Shown: positions 11,484 through 27,607 of the stretch, in pieces
Layout of the letters: the number at the start of each line of letters is the position of its first letter
How positions within the stretch are numbered: the stretch's first letter is position 1
Assembly: GCA_031286305.1 (NCBI GenBank)
Contig: JAITUM010000172.1
Span: 1-32,000 of the forward strand
Direction: 5' to 3'
DNA length: 32,000 nucleotides
Source: Candidatus Fibrimonadaceae bacterium
Lineage (GTDB): Bacteria; Fibrobacterota; Fibrobacteria; Fibrobacterales; Fibrobacteraceae
Notes under the pieces: generated by a model
Databases searched by the model: none
What the model was told of the DNA's origin: nothing
What the model saw: only the letters and a program-made list of their open reading frames with translations
Translations under genes and position numbers: made by a program

Positions 11484-11512
11484 AATATACATTATTTTTC
11501 GGCAAACGTCAA
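11484..11512 (-). promoter_or_regulatory. Sigma-70-type promoter for rfbB: TTGACG, 17 nt spacer, TATATT
   Basis: Minus-strand TTGACG (11512-11507), 17 nt spacer, TATATT (11489-11484). An A-rich tract lies upstream and the site is about 55 nt upstream of ATG 11424. Confidence 0.45.
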
Positions 11513-11714
11513 CTTTTTTTGCATTTTTTTTTATTTTTTTTAATATTTTTTTTGCGCCAAGCTAGCTAGCGAGGCTCTTTTTTTTAATTTTGCGTATCAA
11601 GCTAATACACAAACAACAGCTTTTGGGCTACCTTCACAGGTAGCAAAACAACAATAAGCGCTTACAACATTACATTAGCTTTTTTTTTAAAAAAACCTTT
11701 GTCATGCAAAGCTT

Positions 11715-12668
11715 CTAGCCTCTATAGGGCTCACCGGATTTAACAACACCGAAAGCTATTTTTACTAGCCTATGCATTACAGCAGTCAAAGCTAACATTT
11801 TAGGTTTTCCTTTTTCTGTTAGCCTTTTATACATTTTTGCCATTGGGGTTCTGTTAAGCTGGATAGCACTAGAGGCGCACATAAACAAAAGACCGCGCAA
11901 ATACGGGTTGCCTGTTTTGGATATTTTGCCATTGCCTTTTATGCTTGTGCCGCTTTCAAAAATTGTTGGGTCTAAACCAATAAAAGATGTTAGCTGCTTG
12001 TGCGTTGCAAACGGTTCTAGACCTTTGCAACGGACAAGAAGCGTAGCGGCTGTTTTGGCACCTATGCCGGGTATCGTTTTCGACAGACGAAATTGCTCCG
12101 GGAAAATTTCCTTTACCAAATCGTAAAGTTCTTTTTCCAAGGCTTTTTGCTGCTCTTTGCAAATGGACTTCACGCTAGACATTGCAGCTAATGCTTTGTC
12201 GCTTTTGCCAGCTACTAGAGCGGCGGAAGTTTTCATATTGCCCGCAGACCTTTCGAGCTTGGATAGACCGGACAATAGGGAAACTATCACCATAGCCCTT
12301 GCATGTTTAAGTGGCAAAGGCTGCCAAAATTCTATCTGTGCGCTCTTGGTCTCTGCGTAGCCTGCAATGAGTCTAGCGTCCTTTTTATCCGTCTTTACCT
12401 TGTTGCCAAGAGACTGCATATAACGACGGACAAAAAGGGGGTTAAATATCCGAACAAGCGCGCCGTTTTTACACAGGAATTTAGCCATCTGGTAATGGTA
12501 ATTACCTGTTGCCTCCATTGTGTAAATAGCATTGGGCGGGGTGTTCTTTAGAAGAACGCGCCAGCCTTTGCGGTTGTTGCTGTATTTGACATCAACGCCA
12601 TTGCAATGGGCGTTAAATGTGTCTTTTGAGATGTCTATGCCAACATAGACCTTTTTCTTAACATTCAT
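11715..12668 (-). CDS. IS110-family DEDD transposase/recombinase
   Basis: Start at ATG 12668 after GAGAGG. N-terminal VYVGIDISKDTFNAH (DEDD_Tnp_IS110-type). C-terminal LSKTIPGIGAKTAATLL...FESGTSIKGNGKISKTGNPYLRGLL (Transposase_20-type). Confidence 0.9.
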   Translation of the reverse strand: MNVKKKVYVGIDISKDTFNAHCNGVDVKYSNNRKGWRVLLKNTPPNAIYTMEATGNYHYQMAKFLCKNGALVRIFNPLFVRRYMQSLGNKVKTDKKDARLIAGYAETKSAQIEFWQPLPLKHARAMVIVSLLSGLSKLERSAGNMKTSAALVAGKSDKALAAMSSVKSICKEQQKALEKELYDLVKEIFPEQFRLSKTIPGIGAKTAATLLVRCKGLEPFATHKQLTSFIGLDPTIFESGTSIKGNGKISKTGNPYLRGLLFMCASSAIQLNRTPMAKMYKRLTEKGKPKMLALTAVMHRLVKIAFGVVKSGEPYRG

Positions 12669-12865
12669 GTTAACCTCTCTGTTTAAGTGTTTCAACGCTT
12701 GCGGGGACTTAATACCTTCACTCCTATAAACGAGCGCGAAGCCCAGAGTCTCAACTCGGCAAACATCACCACAAGCGTTTCCCATCATGCCACTATCTTA
12801 TTTCGCAAGCGTAAAAGCCCAAGGGTATGGACAGTTTCAGGCATGAAGGGTAATAAGGATTATCG
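12669..12865 (-). ncRNA. Candidate IS110 bridge (seek) RNA in the upstream non-coding end
   Basis: This stretch is GC-richer than the flanking AT-rich DNA. The long-range helix 12695-12704 / 12769-12778 has one G-U pair only on the minus-sense transcript. TCATGC (12785-12790) and GCATGA (12841-12846) match the terminal repeat GTCATGC in both orientations. The ends of the RNA are not defined. Confidence 0.35.
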
Positions 12866-13131
12866 ACCCGAAATTGAAATGCTTAATGTTTTTATTTTTA
12901 GTTTTTTTTTTACTAAACTGAATGAGAGCAAAAAGCACGCCAAAATAGACAGGCGGAAAAGGGAATCGATTTTTTTTCATATTATTTTTTATTCCATGCT
13001 ACTACATAAAAAATTTTTCTATTCAGAAAACCATCTGAAAAAAACCTAGAATTTTGTCATGCTTTTTGCAAACCACTACAGGGGATATTATAAATGTTTT
13101 CAATTATTCAAAATAATGATAAATATTAAAC

Positions 13132-13177
13132 TTTTCCCTGAACTGCCCATAATAGGGTGAAGGCAGTTCAGGGAAAA
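13132..13177. promoter_or_regulatory. Perfect 16-bp stem / 14-nt loop hairpin (candidate packaging signal, complementary-strand origin or recombination site)
   Basis: ttttccctgaactgcc (13132-13147) pairs perfectly with ggcagttcagggaaaa (13162-13177). No U-run follows on either strand, so it is not a classical terminator. Confidence 0.5.
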
Positions 13178-13277
13178 ATTTTAATAGACCCGCACCGCCA
13201 ACAACGGCTACACTTTGCCGCCGATGACAAAGGCAAAGAAAACAAAAACAGTCCGAAAGGACAATAAGGAGGTCAAC

Positions 13278-13583
13278 ATGACTAAAAGGAACAAGCTAGA
13301 AATAGCACGGATAAACGCAAACCAAAGTATAGATTTTTTTCGAATGAAAATCTGTGATTTGGAAAAAATAGGAAGCATAGAACTAAGAGCAAACAATACA
13401 GGCTCGCTAGGGTATAAAAATCTATACTTTGATAACGAAGATATTGGAATGGTGCTAATGAATGTGGAAACCAACGAACCGGAAGAATACGCAAACATAC
13501 ATTTGCAATATATGCCAAATATATGCGTGTTATGCATAGCCTACGAAAAAGAAAGATTAAAAATATTAAGAAAGGAGGTGTAG
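13278..13583 (+). CDS. Hypothetical protein (101 aa), opposite orientation to the phage structural module
   Basis: ATG 13278 lies 6 nt after AAGGAGG, and the stop abuts the next ORF. No motif recognised. Confidence 0.5.
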   Translation: MTKRNKLEIARINANQSIDFFRMKICDLEKIGSIELRANNTGSLGYKNLYFDNEDIGMVLMNVETNEPEEYANIHLQYMPNICVLCIAYEKERLKILRKEV

Positions 13584-13584
13584 A

Positions 13585-13806
13585 ATGAGGATAGAGCGGA
13601 AATATAGCAGAGCCCTAGACTATTGGGATAGGGCACTAAACCACACAATGAATGGGAAAAATAAAATTGCCTTGTGCTGTGCAAAGGTGGCAGCATACTA
13701 TTTTGACTTCGTGGCGCAGAATGCCCCGGAACTGGAGGATAGCAAGAAGGCTAGAGCGTATTTTTTCCAAGTGTGCGATAGCTATGGCTTAAACTACAAG
13801 ACGTGA
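13585..13806 (+). CDS. Hypothetical protein (73 aa)
   Basis: ATG 13585 follows AAGGAGGTG and lies 2 nt after the previous stop, suggesting a coupled pair. No motif recognised. Confidence 0.45.
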   Translation: MRIERKYSRALDYWDRALNHTMNGKNKIALCCAKVAAYYFDFVAQNAPELEDSKKARAYFFQVCDSYGLNYKT

Positions 13807-13862
13807 AAAAAGCCCTCCCGCCCATGCTTCAAGATTTAACACAGGCGGGTAACAGATTTAAT

Positions 13863-14174
13863 TTACTTTTCACTTTTTGCTCGTGGATGACGTCCTAACG
13901 TATGAAAAACACCCTTTAGGTTAGGGTCGGAGCTACTACGCCATTTATGGGTATTGCCTCTATTATCTTTACCGCCACAATCTGCGACCGCTTTAGCGTT
14001 TTGTTCACTCTTTTTCATTTCAAGACAAGGAGCCGTGCCGGGGCTTATTACAATAAGCTCTCCGTTTTCACAGACCAAATAACAGCCGGTCACGGGGGGG
14101 CTGTGCCGTTCTTGTGCAAAGGCACAGACAACAAGCATAAAAGCAAAAACGAAAATAAAAGAAATATTTATCAT
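13863..14174 (-). CDS. Small secreted protein (103 aa), apparently leaderless mRNA
   Basis: Signal-like MINISFIFVFAFMLVVCAFAQ followed by four further Cys. There is no SD, but a consensus promoter places the predicted transcription start within a few nt of the ATG. Confidence 0.45.
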   Translation of the reverse strand: MINISFIFVFAFMLVVCAFAQERHSPPVTGCYLVCENGELIVISPGTAPCLEMKKSEQNAKAVADCGGKDNRGNTHKWRSSSDPNLKGVFHTLGRHPRAKSEK

Positions 14175-14182
14175 ATATACAT

Positions 14183-14211
14183 AATATACATTTTTTTTTA
14201 CGACATGTCAA
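14183..14211 (-). promoter_or_regulatory. Sigma-70-type promoter (TTGACA, 17 nt spacer, TATATT) with its -10 element 8 nt from ATG 14174
   Basis: Minus-strand TTGACA (14211-14206), 17 nt spacer, TATATT (14188-14183). Only ATGTATAT separates the -10 element from the start codon. Confidence 0.45.
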
Positions 14212-14229
14212 GTTTTTTTTATGTTTTTT

Positions 14230-14982
14230 TTAGAATGGTAAAGGCTCATCGTCTAAGTTTATTTTGTAGTTCGGTTTTTCTGCGTAAGGGTCATAGGGTG
14301 GAATGACTGGTTCAAAGCCGTCTCTGTTTATTCGATACTCGCTTTTATACTCGTTGTAATAACGGCGCAGGGAAATGGTTAAATTGGCTTGCTGGTAAAC
14401 GCTCATTTTATACATCTGCTCTTCAAAAAGCAATAAAAATTCTGTAAAGGTTTCGCATTGACCCAGAGACTGGAAATTTTTAATTACGCTCTTTGTTTGG
14501 TTGATTTTATCAACGCTAGGTAAAAACGAATCTAAAAACAATGGGTCATTGGTTTCAACGCTTGCAGGGCTATACTGGTGCTTCTGCGGGTCATCGGCAT
14601 GGACTAGGTAACGCCTTGCACCCTTGATACAATAAACGCGCTCAAAGCTGTTTGGCATTAATAGCTGTTGGTTTTCTTCTTGGGCGGGTTCTTTTTCTTC
14701 ATTTTCTTTAGGTTCTTCTTTGTCAAATTTGCCGTATTCCTTGAAATAGTTTTGCATGGTGCTTAGTTCCCGGCTGGTGGCAAATGACAGCAGCAAATGC
14801 CAATGGGGTTTTACAGGTTCGTTCAGTTCATTGGTATCGTGGTCATGCTGGATAAAATAGAAGTTGCGGCATATTGATTTACAACGCTCTTTTATGGCTT
14901 CTAGATTATCCCAACCGGTTGGAATAATTAATTGCCAGCTTCTAGACTGGATTTTCTTTTCTTTTTTTGCTCTAGTTTTCAT
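14230..14982 (-). CDS. Rolling-circle replication initiator, plasmid RepB/pMV158 (Rep_2)-like
   Basis: 250 aa. FYFIQHDHD corresponds to LHDKD of RepB, KPHWHLLLSF to KAHYHVLY, and RYLVHADDPQKHQYSPASV is the Tyr-containing catalytic region. AAGGAA lies upstream. Confidence 0.75.
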   Translation of the reverse strand: MKTRAKKEKKIQSRSWQLIIPTGWDNLEAIKERCKSICRNFYFIQHDHDTNELNEPVKPHWHLLLSFATSRELSTMQNYFKEYGKFDKEEPKENEEKEPAQEENQQLLMPNSFERVYCIKGARRYLVHADDPQKHQYSPASVETNDPLFLDSFLPSVDKINQTKSVIKNFQSLGQCETFTEFLLLFEEQMYKMSVYQQANLTISLRRYYNEYKSEYRINRDGFEPVIPPYDPYAEKPNYKINLDDEPLPF

Positions 14983-15019
14983 CTTTAATTCCTTTGTTAA
15001 AGGTTAAATGTTAACTACC

Positions 15020-15090
15020 ACTACACCACGCATTAAGACAAGCCCATGCGTGGTGTAGTAGAAATTGGATTTCTACGGCTTTTTACTACA
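15020..15090 (-). promoter_or_regulatory. Candidate double-strand origin: two overlapping hairpins carrying TACTACA motifs immediately upstream of rep
   Basis: Hairpin 1 has a 14-bp perfect stem (15020-15033 / 15046-15059) and a 12-nt loop. Hairpin 2 has 11-bp arms with one mismatch (15054-15064 / 15080-15090). TACTACA sits at 15084-15090 and its complement at 15054-15060. The pMV158 family nick site is TACTACG/AC. Confidence 0.45.
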
Positions 15091-15262
15091 GATACTTGAA
15101 TTTCATAAGCCTTTTATAGCAGCCGTCGGAATTGCACCGCTCTACCAAACTGTATTCTTTCGTGCCCGACATCATACGATACCGGTGGTCGCTTGACTAC
15201 CAAGCTCGGCTACTAACTCCCTGTTTTCTCGGCTAGCTACAGGGATTTTACTTTAGACATAT

Positions 15263-15613
15263 TCAACCCCAAAAAATAAAAAATGCGAATTTGCAAACAT
15301 AAGCAATAAAAAATAAGTAGCAAACATAAAACAAAGAAAGCGCAAAAGGGACAATGAAAGCGAAACGAATTGGCAAAAGAAACAAACAAAATATACACGA
15401 AAAAAAAGCCAAAAAAGCGCCGAAAAAAAGTTGATAGCCAACATCAAAAACGACACCGAAAAGAGTATTGATAGCACCAAAAGAAACGCAGGCAATAGAA
15501 AATGTAATTACACTCATTAGCTTAACATGCTCATATTTCTTAACTTGGAAATAATGGATACATTTCAAATAATAAAACCTAACCAAACGAGAAACAAACA
15601 TTTTAAGTGACAT
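15263..15613 (-). CDS. Phage integral membrane protein (116 aa)
   Basis: ATG 15613 lies 4 nt after the stop of the preceding ORF, with AAGGGG upstream. Three to four hydrophobic segments. Confidence 0.5.
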   Translation of the reverse strand: MSLKMFVSRLVRFYYLKCIHYFQVKKYEHVKLMSVITFSIACVSFGAINTLFGVVFDVGYQLFFGAFLAFFSCIFCLFLLPIRFAFIVPFALSLFYVCYLFFIAYVCKFAFFIFWG

Positions 15614-15617
15614 TATT

Positions 15618-15764
15618 TTACCCCTTGATGAATTTTAAAGGACAATTTGCACAAGTGCCATCATAAGGGCAGTCAGAGCAAATACAGCAACACAAATCAG
15701 AATATTCACCGCAGGCAATGCAAATGCCGTTCTTATTTATTTTATCTATATCTATGGAATCCAT
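15618..15764 (-). CDS. Cys-rich 48-aa protein (11 Cys), below the ORF-track cutoff
   Basis: ATG 15764 follows GAGAGG. Translation is MDSIDIDKINKNGICIACGEYSDLCCCICSDCPYDGTCANCPLKFIKG. It is tightly followed by the next ORF. Confidence 0.45.
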   Translation of the reverse strand: MDSIDIDKINKNGICIACGEYSDLCCCICSDCPYDGTCANCPLKFIKG

Positions 15765-15904
15765 TTTTACCTCTCTACCGTGTCATCAACTGTTAAATAG
15801 TTTTTTTTCATTTCCAACGCCTCCGGCTTTTGAAAAAATGAAATTTGAACATCCTTTTGAGACTGTAGAAAACTATGTCAATAATAGCACTCATTTTTTT
15901 TCTC

Positions 15905-16084
15905 CTATGTTTTTGAGGCTCCATATACCAACAGATGTATTGTTATTATTATAGCTACCGCACCGGCAACAAATGGGATAAAAGTTAACGCACCACCCTG
16001 AAAGCCTAGCGTAAAAGCTGCTATTACACTATCCACAATTGCAGGAGTTAACTCATAAGGGGAATCACAAGCAAATGTTGTCAC
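15905..16084 (-). CDS. Small hydrophobic phage protein (59 aa)
   Basis: GTG 16084 lies 5 nt after GAGG and directly after the stop of the previous micro-ORF. The C-terminal half FIPFVAGAVAIIITIHLLVY is a TM segment. The ORF track extends it to 16132. Confidence 0.4.
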   Translation of the reverse strand: MTTFACDSPYELTPAIVDSVIAAFTLGFQGGALTFIPFVAGAVAIIITIHLLVYGASKT

Positions 16085-16086
16085 AA

Positions 16087-16176
16087 TTACCTCACAGCTA
16101 AAAAGAAAAGGACACCGAAAATTACAACGCACACACAGCCCAAAAAATAACCCAAAAGGAAAGAAAGAACAAACAC
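16087..16176 (-). CDS. 29-aa single-TM peptide (pVII/pIX-sized)
   Basis: GTG 16176 lies 6 nt after AAGGAGG and abuts the previous stop (TAAGTG). Translation is (M)FVLSFLLGYFLGCVCVVIFGVLFFLAVR. Confidence 0.45.
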   Translation of the reverse strand: MFVLSFLLGYFLGCVCVVIFGVLFFLAVR

Positions 16177-16287
16177 TTAAAACCTCCTTCTAAGGTAATC
16201 ATAAGCAAACCAAACGCAACATAAAACAGACCAACAGACAATAAAAATTGAGCAAGCCAAACCACTAACAAAAAGAAATCTATCCAT
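16177..16287 (-). CDS. 36-aa single-TM peptide (pVII/pIX-sized)
   Basis: ATG 16287 directly follows the TAG of the 235-aa ORF, with AAGGAGG 8 nt upstream. Translation is MDRFLFVSGLACSIFIVCWSVLCCVWFAYDYLRRRF. Confidence 0.45.
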   Translation of the reverse strand: MDRFLFVSGLACSIFIVCWSVLCCVWFAYDYLRRRF

Positions 16288-25513: not shown

Positions 25514-27607
25514 CTAAGCCCTAAGATCCAGGCTGTTTTTTTCTTTTTTTTCTGCAACTTTCAGAATATGAACTTTTGGCGTTTTGCCATAAATGAGTTC
25601 GCCAAGAGACAGACCGATATCTGCCAGCTCCTTTGCCAAAGTTTCCCTTTCCTCTTTCACCGCGTCGCTGGCTGTTCCAGCATCGTCTTGAAAACGGATA
25701 TTCAAAATATTTTTGCTTAAAACTAAATCCACATGTACTTTGCCAAGTTTTTTTGTATTAGTTTCTATTGAAAAAGAAAGCGCGGAATCTTGTCGTTTTT
25801 TGGAACTGCCTTTGCGCTCGTCTTTTATTTTCAACCGCCCTTTTTGCAACTCTCCTTCGTGCATAAAATAAAATACATTTTCTTTGTCGATTTGCGGACG
25901 GGTATCCTGGTCAATGCGTGTCCATTGAATTTGCTCTTTCAAATTTTGCAGCACATTGCGAATTTCTTCGTGCGTTTTTGCTTGTTCGCTAAAATTTACA
26001 TTTTGCTGTACTTGTTGCTCGGTATATTTAAACAAAATTTTCTCAATTGCTTTTTGCAAAGCCTCCGGTTGCCACACTTTGCCCGTTGGCAGTTCCTGCA
26101 ATAATTCTCTCCTAACCGGCTCCGGCAAATTTTTAAATAAATCTCCCTCATAATTTCCAAGCGGCTGGTACTTTAAAAGTTGAGCGCTGAGAGTTGAGCA
26201 TTGAGAGTTCCCCTCTTGAAAAACAGGTTGAGCGGTAAGAGAGGGGTGCCCGGAGGGCGGGGTGTGGTCTAGAGAAATGACTCTCCACAGTAAGTTTGCT
26301 TGTTCTTTTGTAACATTTGTTCCATGTTCGGTTTGCAGAGAAAGTTCGTGCATGGTGCTTGCAAAGGTTCTCACTATTTCCGGATTTTCCGGCAAATTTC
26401 CGAAAGATAAAATGGTATCTCTAATGCTTAATATCTGCGGAGTTAAAGGCAAATTTGTGCTTAACCAAAAATTTCTTTCTTCTTTTGGAATTTGCACACT
26501 AGCAGGCCAAGGTTGTAAAAAGTGGCTAGTGGCTAGTGGCTGGTGGCTAGTGGCTAGTGGTTGGGAAATTTTACTGGATGTTGTGGATTGAGGATTACTC
26601 GCCTTTGGCGATTCACCAGCGAAGTGTTCAGCGGGAAGGGTGTTAGGGATTGGGGAATTAATAGTTGGGGGTTGGTGGAGTGAGAGGGCTATTTCGATTT
26701 TTTGAGGGAGAGTTATTGTTGTTTTTGGCGGTAGTGGAATTTCAAATGAAGGTCTATTTTCTGTTTTTTCCGGTTGCGCATTTTTTATTAACGGTGTAAT
26801 CACAAGGCTTTCGGCTTTTGGAGTGACAATGGCAAAAACAGGTTTTTCACTGAATACGGTAGATAGTTTTTTTGCCAAATCTTTTGGAACTTCAATGGCT
26901 GTTTTTTGCAACATAACAGCTTCCAATTCTTTTAGCGGAGCGTTTTGCAATTCTCGTGGAATGCCTAATTCTTTTAGTTCTTGCAAAGCGTGGAAAACCA
27001 CTTGAAAGGTTTGCGGCGATGCTACTGGAGCATTGGGGGCATTGGGAACGTTGCGAACATCCGTGCTTTCTTGCGTAACAATTTGCGAAGCAATGGAAAC
27101 AACGCTTATAAAATCGTTTTTTGAAAGAGCTAAGAGCAATTTATTTTCCTGTGGAATTTCCGGAGCAGGATTCAAAATTTTTACTGCTTCTGCAATTGCA
27201 AGTTTTAAGGCAGGTAACTGTTGCTTGTCTATAGGAGCGTTTAAATTTTGCTGGATAACTTCTAACAGTTTTAATAATTTTTTCACAGGAATATTTTCTT
27301 GATTTGCAGAAATATTATCTCTTACTTTCGATAAATCCTGAGCAAGTTCCGGAAATTTATTTTTTAATTCTACAATCAAACGAGAAATATCATCTATAAG
27401 TTTAAGCTTCTCAATATTCAACCTGGTAGCGGCTTTATCGTCAAACGTTTCTTTTAATTGAGAGTCTTTTTTAGTTGAGAGTTGAGAGTTAAGAGCTGAG
27501 AACTCCCTTTCCGCTTTGTATTTCGCTGGTGAACAGCTGGAGGCTGGTAGTTGAGAGTTATTCTCCATTCTCAATTCTCCACTTTCAACTAGACCTGAGT
27601 TTCTCAC
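25514..27607 (-). CDS. Pro/Gln-rich protein with FliK-like (Flg_hook-type) C-terminal domain; contains in-frame repeat elements
   Basis: The C-terminal ALSFSIETNTKKLGKVHVDLVLSKNILNIRFQDDAGTASDAVKEERETLAKELADIGLSLGEL follows the P..LG.V.V.L....L.V.F......L......L...L...GL.L pattern of hook-length control proteins. GTG 27607 overlaps the upstream stop (GTGA). An alternative ATG at 27568 lies 8 nt after GGAG. Confidence 0.55.
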   Translation of the reverse strand: MRNSGLVESGELRMENNSQLPASSCSPAKYKAEREFSALNSQLSTKKDSQLKETFDDKAATRLNIEKLKLIDDISRLIVELKNKFPELAQDLSKVRDNISANQENIPVKKLLKLLEVIQQNLNAPIDKQQLPALKLAIAEAVKILNPAPEIPQENKLLLALSKNDFISVVSIASQIVTQESTDVRNVPNAPNAPVASPQTFQVVFHALQELKELGIPRELQNAPLKELEAVMLQKTAIEVPKDLAKKLSTVFSEKPVFAIVTPKAESLVITPLIKNAQPEKTENRPSFEIPLPPKTTITLPQKIEIALSLHQPPTINSPIPNTLPAEHFAGESPKASNPQSTTSSKISQPLATSHQPLATSHFLQPWPASVQIPKEERNFWLSTNLPLTPQILSIRDTILSFGNLPENPEIVRTFASTMHELSLQTEHGTNVTKEQANLLWRVISLDHTPPSGHPSLTAQPVFQEGNSQCSTLSAQLLKYQPLGNYEGDLFKNLPEPVRRELLQELPTGKVWQPEALQKAIEKILFKYTEQQVQQNVNFSEQAKTHEEIRNVLQNLKEQIQWTRIDQDTRPQIDKENVFYFMHEGELQKGRLKIKDERKGSSKKRQDSALSFSIETNTKKLGKVHVDLVLSKNILNIRFQDDAGTASDAVKEERETLAKELADIGLSLGELIYGKTPKVHILKVAEKKEKNSLDLRA
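26178..26262 (+). repeat. Heptamer array plus degenerate core, copy D (inside the FliK-like ORF)
   Basis: AGTTGAG CGCTGAG AGTTGAG CATTGAG AGTTCCC (26178-26212) is followed by hairpin CCCCTCT...AGAGGGG (26210-26216 / 26240-26246) and G-rich heptamers TGCCCGG AGGGCGG GGTGTGG. Confidence 0.55.
26522..26688 (-). repeat. Heptamer-flanked repeat element, copy C (inside the FliK-like ORF, inverted relative to A and B)
   Basis: Six GTGGCTA-type units (26522-26563). The core on the minus strand is ACACCCTTCCCGCTGAACACTTCGCTGGTGAA... (26598-26643), 29 of 32 identical to copy A by hand alignment. G-rich heptamers occupy 26644-26688. Confidence 0.75.
27473..27590 (+). repeat. Heptamer-flanked repeat element, copy B (spanning the 5' end of the FliK-like ORF)
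   Basis: AGTTGAG AGTTGAG AGTTAAG AGCTGAG (27473-27500). Core 27501-27547 is AACTCCCTTTCCGCTTTGTATTTCGCTGGTGAACAGCTGGAGGCTGG, 38 of 47 identical to copy A. The right flank 27561-27590 is an imperfect inverted copy of the left array (23 of 30). Confidence 0.75.

Follow-up and report, generated by a model that had tools for sequence, protein, structure and literature searches.

Among the short dispersed repeats of bacteria, repetitive extragenic palindromes (REPs, with the related bacterial interspersed mosaic elements, BIMEs) are typically extragenic, and transposable elements of the miniature inverted-repeat type (MITEs) carry terminal inverted repeats and target-site duplications. Cyanobacterial genomes reportedly hold heptameric tandem repeats (STRR) with very small dispersed repeats (SDR) nested inside them, an arrangement that Elhai et al. 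are said to have described in 2008. Rickettsia palindromic elements (RPEs) span ~100-150 bp, are palindromic, and are found in dozens of unrelated genes (Ogata et al. 2000, summarised in PMC10969869). Heptamer repeats of Nostoc and Xanthomonas have been described as under-represented in coding regions, and G-tract heptamers of the kind that flank one of the copies below were reported to form G-quadruplexes in these bacteria (PMC4692102). Here, we describe a 48-nt dispersed element (hereafter the core) in a 32,000-nt stretch of DNA from a Candidatus Fibrimonadaceae bacterium (contig JAITUM010000172.1, positions 1 to 32,000; hereafter the window), in which one intact gene for a FliK-like protein carries two in-frame cores, B and C, each inserted precisely into an array of 7-nt tandem repeats within a hypervariable linker. 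The features on which the argument rests are the following.

25514-27607, minus strand: FliK/SctP-like gene, 697 codons from GTG 27607 and 684 from ATG 27568.
27568-27607, minus strand: start-codon zone, with GTG 27605-27607, TTG 27572-27574, and ATG 27568-27570.
27560-27588, minus strand: GAGAATN array of ~3 units, called with Tandem Repeats Finder (TRF), encoding GELRMEN.
27473-27559, minus strand: AACTCTC array (NSQL...NSQLST), split by core B; TRF segment 27473-27501.
27501-27548, plus strand: core B, reversed relative to the gene and in the same orientation as copy A, encoding PASSCSPAKYKAEREF.
26597-26644, minus strand: core C, forward relative to the gene and inverted relative to A and B, encoding NTLPAEHFAGESPKAS.
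26581-26656, minus strand: CCYYAAT array, degenerate, split by core C.
26521-26560, minus strand: CCACTAG array of 5.7 units, encoding QPLATSHQPLATSH; TRF score 73, 93% matches.
26178-26209, minus strand: AACTCTC-type array ("copy D"), degenerate, encoding NSQCSTLSAQ, without a core.
20964-21119, plus strand: reference copy A, intergenic, with its core at 21015-21062 in the loop of a 150-nt hairpin.

The window holds exactly three copies of the core (A, B, and C), the layout of which reads AACNCCCTTYCCGCT....A.TTCGCTGGTGAA followed by a small hairpin and GT, and which has a conserved 33-nt 5' part and a small variable hairpin. Core B matches A with 81% identity over 48 nt (nhmmer E 4e-15). For core C, the identity to A amounts to 91% over 33 nt, and that to an intergenic copy from a different metagenome-assembled genome (MAG) to 96% over 53 nt. 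Such matches are far above chance, with blastn E-values of 4e-8 and 2e-6 within the window and nhmmer E-values of ~1e-15 to 1e-17. Four further cores were located outside the window, these being the intergenic copy just mentioned, from a Candidatus Fibrimonadaceae MAG (L005), a second from the same MAG (L009), another intergenic one from a Bacteroidales MAG (L007), and one in the 5' part of the coding sequence of a FliK-like orthologue (L025). In L009 (1560-1626), a CCCCACA heptamer and the core give the last ~10 codons and the stop of an AAA-ATPase/DUF4143-like gene, and this gene end sits 10 nt upstream of dnaE.

Compensatory changes (TCGCC/GGCGA, CATCC/GGATG, and CAGC/GCTG) are seen among the seven copies in the 5-bp hairpin that follows GGTGAA. 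Here, 85.7% of cells are paired, compared with 64% in shuffles (1/500) and with 17-49% after sliding of the partners, and what is conserved is therefore a nucleic-acid element and not a peptide. Apart from this 3' hairpin the core has no palindrome, and its termini (AACNCCC... and ...GGT) are not inverted repeats. Around the core of copy A, the stems of the large hairpin are formed by GGGTATN/NATACCC heptamer arrays, and the fold has a z of -9.0, while composite B (core plus arrays) folds weakly (z = -2.9) and C and D show no folding.

The following features identify B and C as insertions. Firstly, both cores are absent at their sites from 51 of 51 homologues. The family alignment shows conserved blocks alternating with six hypervariable linkers, and C lies in the fourth of these (HV4), between KIEIALSLHQ and FLQPWPAS, where the window protein has 50 aa and the 44 full-length homologues have 4-42 aa (median 18); neither LPAEHFAGES nor PLATSH occurs in any of these 44. 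Core B is situated ~7 codons behind the start codon, in the N-terminal linker, and orthologue P0011, which also has the GELRMEN peptide, reads GELRMENKENSQFSILHSQL where the window protein reads GELRMENNSQL-[PASSCSPAKYKAEREFSAL]-NSQLST. Secondly, in silico excision of exactly 48 nt leaves a phase-continuous array over the junction, AGTTGAG x5.6 at B and TCCCCAA x4.0 at C, and excision of 45 nt in L025 likewise leaves one. The flanks rejoin without duplicated bases, and no target-site duplication was found at the core flanks. It follows that the cores are precise insertions into pre-existing heptamer arrays, made without target duplication. In the loci L023 and L025, the genes come in the same order and the N-terminal coding sequence is almost identical, yet the core site differs: L023 has a perfect 30-bp heptamer hairpin (z = -10.7) without a core, and L025 has a core opposite in orientation to that of B in the window. 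As judged from these comparisons, the data support B and C as lineage-specific in-frame insertions into variable Pro/Gln/Thr-rich linkers, rather than as ancestral protein sequence.

The arrays themselves have a different history. Period-7 arrays were called with TRF, and all the convincing ones of the window are the two arms of A and four inside the FliK-like gene; the types met were AACTCTC, GAGAATN, CCACTAG, CCYYAAT, and GGGTATN. The GAGAATN array forms an imperfect inverted partner of the AACTCTC array across core B. Repeat-derived stretches of the FliK-like protein include, besides those encoded by core B and the CCACTAG array, LPAEHFAGESPK. Since many orthologues carry the AACTCTC array around B at the same position (ENNSQLSTLNSQL), and the array type of D is present at the same site in at least 12 of the listed homologues (NSQLSTLNSQLLKY), both appear to predate the window lineage, the former rather clearly and the latter probably, D then not being a core copy. 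A first-pass annotation of this DNA had placed three to four element copies, D included, inside the gene, which is an overcount; because D lacks a core and is a degenerate AACTCTC-type array only, the gene contains two cores and four heptamer arrays. The 697-codon open reading frame (ORF) that it described does exist, however, its quoted peptides are correct, and the elements do occur in both orientations, with B reversed and C forward relative to the gene. It was also right to place them in a tolerant Pro/Gln-rich linker, as both cores fall in such variable regions. The orthologue alignment that it proposed as a test gives a divided answer, in that B and C are absent from the homologues, whereas the D array and the AACTCTC array around B are shared and to that extent look ancestral.

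Regarding the reading frame, the core is 16 codons long and open in five of six frames, whereas random 48-mers drawn from the window have 54% of their frames open; an inserted core therefore leaves the frame unshifted and seldom brings in a stop. The annotation's remark that the elements never introduce a stop is therefore true, though as evidence it is weak, and frame preservation, being largely built in (a length of 3n and few stops), is no evidence of the selection for frame-preserving insertions that it suggested; it is against stops that there are signs of selection. Of the composites, B (116 nt) and C (170 nt) have only the gene's frame open, and intergenic A is closed in six of six frames. 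More conspicuously, the sole deviant base of the CCACTAG array (26542, in a unit reading CCACCAG) turns codon 356 into CAG instead of an in-frame TAG, and the array ends at 26522, exactly ahead of the next would-be in-frame TAG. Taken together, this base change and this array end look like the mark that purifying selection leaves where a sequence is translated.

Three in-frame start candidates lie within 40 nt. The GTG at 27605-27607 overlaps the upstream stop (GTGA) and is outside the repeat, the TTG at 27572-27574 corresponds to the start of orthologues L011, L012, and L028, which reads TTGAGRRTTGA, and the ATG at 27568-27570 has a GGAG 8 nt upstream and is the start picked in the JGI gene call (P0001). 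Both TTG 27574 and ATG 27568 are inside the GAGAATN array, so the earlier claim that B supplies both candidate starts holds for the ATG (and for the TTG, which it had not listed) and fails for the GTG. That the start is ambiguous also stands, with these three candidates, except that a start downstream of B is effectively excluded: after 27568, no in-frame ATG, GTG, or TTG occurs before a TTG that is already inside a conserved block (RLNIEKLK). Core B must thus be translated if the conserved N-terminal block is, and we infer that it is. As family starts are TTG codons inside heptamer repeats, the N-termini of this family are systematically mis-called. The closest FliK-like relative, P0048 (L028 6797-8001), was truncated to 417 aa in the gene call, and its ORF is in fact open from a TTG (LRVDVHINLALAGEQ...) directly after the upstream gene.

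The ORF at 25514-27607 is intact and retains all the conserved blocks and invariant residues of a 25-sequence family alignment. At its C-terminus (aa 604-671), a Pfam search found PF02120 (T3S4/Flg_hook; E 5.6e-7, 29.7 bits), and the same domain was found in 25 of 25 aligned family members (best E 1.3e-7). An AlphaFold2 model built on this 25-member alignment gave two top Foldseek hits in the PDB, each with a probability of 1.00, namely 5CUK, the switch domain of PscP (TM-target 0.49, rmsd 3.0), and 2RRL, the FliK C-terminal domain; a sequence profile search of the PDB with the FliK-like protein returned zero matches. By domain match and model, the ORF appears to encode a FliK/SctP-type protein with a C-terminal T3S4/Flg_hook domain, for which hook-length control and secretion via the flagellar export apparatus are the predicted role. 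Its 52 homologues (627-894 aa) all come from Fibromonadales/Fibromonadaceae MAGs, the source of the gene being a Fibromonadales (Fibrobacterota) bacterium, and flagella are encoded in Fibromonadaceae genomes (PMC4704652). Like the FliK and YscP (SctP) rulers, whose ruler regions vary naturally and contain repeats, the protein has a disordered N-terminus and a T3S4 switch domain that comes after a long region with poor conservation and variable length. It differs from them in that five well-conserved, mostly helical blocks precede the switch domain, that the gene is paired with a gene for a helix-turn-helix (HTH) membrane protein and not placed among flagellar genes, and that the length variation comes from genome-wide repeat DNA and not from internal ruler duplication alone. 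Neighbouring genes in the window are gatB, mqnE, those for a small Zn-ribbon protein and the HTH membrane protein, hisG, rho, and proC. The FliK-like gene has hisG on one side and, on the other, the gene for the HTH membrane protein, the stop of which overlaps GTG 27607; a gene for this ~318-aa HTH protein is the sole consistent neighbour in those five orthologous loci that include flanking DNA, namely L011, L012, L023, L025, and L028.

The inserts coincide with the parts of the protein that are modelled with low confidence. AlphaFold2 pLDDT falls below 50 at aa 1-60 (B), 184-195 (second linker), 317-358 (C), and 451-469 (D), and is 70-87 in the blocks between these segments. The family's spread in length is confined to the linkers, which sum to 147-407 aa, while the remainder stays constant at 477-515 aa (a ~480-aa scaffold). 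Repeats are concentrated in the gene: of the period-7 arrays counted in five loci of different lineages, 12 fall within the FliK-like gene and 5 elsewhere, with the gene making up only ~13% of the DNA, and tandem repeats cover 8-25% of the gene versus 0.7-3.5% of the rest. Moreover, translated GGGC..GCCC hairpins occur in 17 of the 52 homologues as at least eight peptide types (EGQTHRSAPT, EGQPRGVAPT, VRALHATP, YGQPPVVAP, and others), for two of which the DNA hairpin itself was read. All the GC-rich hairpins of L023 (seven) and L025 (three) are in the FliK-like gene, with none elsewhere in those 20-kb loci. The concentration of arrays and tandem repeats, together with these in-gene hairpins, marks the FliK-like gene, throughout the order, as a sink in which DNA repeats of several classes collect. 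For the heptamers, this concentration is the unusual aspect in view of their under-representation in coding regions noted above. Hairpins such as GGGCAGACACATAGGTCTGCCCC and GGGCAACCACGTGGGGTTGCCCC are repeated three to seven times in frame in the third linker of orthologues (L023 10836-11443; L025 7999-8453, in addition to the EGQPRGVAPT sites), and have a REP-like appearance.

Set against the known systems, the core shares with RPEs that it is a small non-autonomous repeat found both between genes and in frame in an intact gene, where it is presumably translated at a tolerant position. The RPE parallel drawn in the annotation holds in this loose sense of in-frame repeat DNA. It does not extend to the element itself, since the core is 48 nt and non-palindromic (with only its 5-bp 3' hairpin), inserts into heptamer arrays, belongs to another phylum with no sequence relationship found, and has so far been met in frame in one gene family only. 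Likewise, the core is short, dispersed, non-coding in origin, and equipped with a hairpin, as are REPs, BIMEs, and MITEs, but is without terminal inverted repeats, target-site duplication, or a REP-style restriction to extragenic DNA. The cyanobacterial heptamer arrays with nested small repeats, as they are reported, seem the closer analogy. In common with them, several period-7 array types occur in one genome, a discrete short unit sits precisely in the array with no target duplication, and the arrays come in inverted pairs that make hairpins; even the GGGTATN/CCCCATA arms of copy A (20964-20987 and 21089-21119) match a heptamer array on a Nostoc sphaeroides plasmid, with 94% identity over 32 nt. 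As for copies per genome, there are three cores in 32 kb here and, by a strict-pattern scan, two in another MAG. The differences are the host, which is one of the Fibrobacterota, and the 48-nt unit, which is larger than the cyanobacterial elements are said to be.

Searches for further copies were of uneven reach. The genome census used a strict exact pattern (TTYCCGCTNNNNNNTTCGCTGGTGAA) of poor sensitivity, and with it a scan of 185,579 GTDB species genomes gave nine matches, of which three were real (two in one Fibrimonadaceae MAG and one in a Bacteroidales MAG), JGI metagenome contigs gave ten matches and none real, the window's own contig evidently being outside that collection, and IMG/VR gave zero. 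A protein search with a synthetic concatenate of all open core frames found nothing, which is uninformative or weakly negative, and a word-index search with the 50-aa linker returned no candidate sharing three words even though P0001 holds this linker, so the index is blind to it. Using phmmer, a 34-aa query against 1.84 billion representatives had 0 matches at E <= 0.001, which is weakly negative at best, and Rfam offered no family at the gathering threshold, only a chance miRNA match (E 0.21). In none of the genome, metagenome, and protein searches, whose sensitivity was poor, were in-frame cores found in unrelated genes; those known are in FliK-like genes only (B and C of the window, and L025), the L009 copy forming the tail and stop of its ATPase gene and the other three being intergenic. 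Finally, two Logan unitigs (L026 and L027, run SRR14710892), the only other assembly, are 100% identical to the window, confirm the flanks of C, and end inside core C with a 29-nt overlap (window 26594-26622). This break points to further copies of the k-mers of that core subtype in the sample. The assembly being a single run identical in sequence to the window, no polymorphism can be read from it.

On balance, we consider it likely, if well short of certain, that these inserts are repeat DNA, in essence selfish or neutral, which is tolerated and accumulates in the disordered linkers of a ruler-type protein, with selection for an open frame as the filter. In outline, six conserved blocks (~480 aa, the last being the T3S4 switch domain) would be joined by disordered hypervariable linkers, where in this order three kinds of repeat would collect, namely 7-nt tandem arrays, GC-rich hairpins, and the 48-nt dispersed element. 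The last of these would have moved into pre-existing heptamer arrays twice in the window lineage, precisely and with no target duplication, once near the start codon and reversed relative to the gene (B) and once, forward, in the fourth linker (C). With its 16 codons and five stop-free frames of six, such an insertion would almost never break the frame, and purifying selection would then remove or mutate any remaining stops. The inserts would be translated as extra disordered spacer, which may lengthen the ruler region and would have no function of its own.

Several observations weigh against this account. Only seven copies of the core are known in total, and that the inserts are translated is something we infer. 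The nearest homologue is only ~60-70% identical, which leaves the B and C insertions undatable and without a truly isogenic empty site. Concerning the identity of the protein, the Flg_hook score is at threshold (29.7 bits against a gathering cutoff of 29.8), the Foldseek E-values are weak (0.075 for 5CUK and 0.16 for 2RRL), and, among the window neighbours examined, the gene is outside any flagellar or type III secretion cluster, for which reason its FliK role is put forward as a predicted one. Furthermore, a neighbouring protein with an EPEPEP linker has no repeats, and tolerance alone does not explain the choice of the FliK-like gene over other disordered proteins.

A bolder proposal would see a codon-neutral mobile 48-nt element, specific to heptamer arrays or hairpins, which together with the arrays and the GC hairpins drives rapid evolution of ruler and thereby hook length in termite-gut lineages. 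We regard this as rather unlikely; if true, selfish DNA would be the raw material for tuning a molecular ruler. Somewhat less probable still is that linker insertions and expansions have been positively selected, either for ruler (hook) length or for variation of a secreted protein. Insertions and deletions in FliK and YscP alter hook or needle length roughly linearly, and the wide range of linker lengths on a constant scaffold, as well as the strong concentration of repeats in this gene in five lineages, would suit such tuning. Relaxed constraint alone, however, predicts the same pattern, the inserts are generic genome repeats and not dedicated modules, and much of the between-block region is modelled as helices and not as an extended ruler, so that linker length may not become ruler length. 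The annotation's idea that the elements generate protein variation is possible, as linker length ranges so widely in the family, but an adaptive value is not supported.

Alternatively, the 5' composite of heptamer arms and core B could be a regulatory device, that is, an mRNA or DNA hairpin acting on translation or on the coupling to the HTH-protein gene upstream, or a switch operated by slippage or by inversion between the inverted heptamer arms, which we hold to be improbable. A heptamer hairpin does recur at the same place after the start codon in several lineages (z = -10.7 for L023 and -2.9 for B), the core is forward in L025 and reversed in the window, with a weakly core-like sequence forward in L028 and L029, and the heptamer units are not multiples of three, so that one 7-nt unit shifts the frame in arrays near the 5' end. 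The arrays are short, though, at three to six units, the N-terminal similarity to the core in L028, L029, L011, and L012 is weak or not significant, the only other assembly, from run SRR14710892, is identical to the window, and the AACTCTC units on both sides of B are direct and in phase, which speaks for insertion and not inversion. An origin of B by in-situ inversion of the weakly core-like forward sequence of the closest relatives is likewise not favoured, given these direct in-phase flanks and the weak N-terminal similarity. Lastly, that the segments are ancestral protein sequence with a secondary likeness to repeats, or that the gene is a decaying, untranslated pseudogene, is very improbable, for although the D array and the AACTCTC array of the N-terminal linker are common to many orthologues and several have a weakly core-like N-terminal IRLAFAGE motif, none of the 51 homologues has B or C at the site concerned, an intergenic copy from a different genome matches C with 96% identity, excision restores the arrays, would-be stops in the arrays have been removed, and the ORF keeps all its conserved blocks and invariant residues.

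Should the reading of tolerated repeat DNA be right, the family would provide a natural series of FliK-like rulers, with a fixed scaffold and linkers of 147-407 aa built from identifiable DNA repeats, that could be used to examine ruler length versus hook length outside the model organisms. It would also place Fibrobacterota beside the cyanobacteria as hosts of small elements that nest in heptamer arrays. For annotation, the stretches NSQLSTL, GELRMEN, QPLATSH, LPAEHFAGE, and EGQTHRSAPT in the FliK-like family are to be taken as DNA repeats rather than protein motifs, and gene callers misplace the start codons of these genes.

Elsewhere in the window, an integrated filamentous phage (inovirus) with the canonical gene order occupies 11500-20900 on the minus strand, with the following recognisable genes.

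20608-20880, minus strand: gV-like gene of the inovirus prophage, 90 aa, followed by small ORFs.
20021-20173, minus strand: major coat protein (phrog_1646).
18378-20021, minus strand: g3p-like gene of the inovirus prophage, 547 aa.
16992-17906, minus strand: Zot/pI-like gene (phrog_197, E 1e-54).
11715-12788, minus strand: IS110-family transposase of the inovirus prophage, probably its integrase.

Related inovirus contigs in IMG/VR (L030-L033) come from the same metagenomes as L028 and L023, and L030 has an IS110-like gene. Copy A sits ~85 nt from the start of the gV-like gene, at the right border of the prophage; the possibility that it is part of the prophage was rejected, as the related contigs are without the core and the heptamer arrays, which marks copy A as host DNA. 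The ORF at 22730-24427 encodes Rho with a ~150-aa N-terminal extension ahead of the Rho_N domain, and that at 21160-22725 has pyrroline-5-carboxylate reductase (ProC) at aa 1-255 and, beyond a long linker, a SPOR peptidoglycan-binding domain at its C-terminus (aa 447-506), which is an unusual combination. At 1193-2800, three small tandem ORFs (242, 170, and 118 aa) with no Pfam match appear paralogue-like and have 51-53-nt direct repeats (families D1 and D2) in common.

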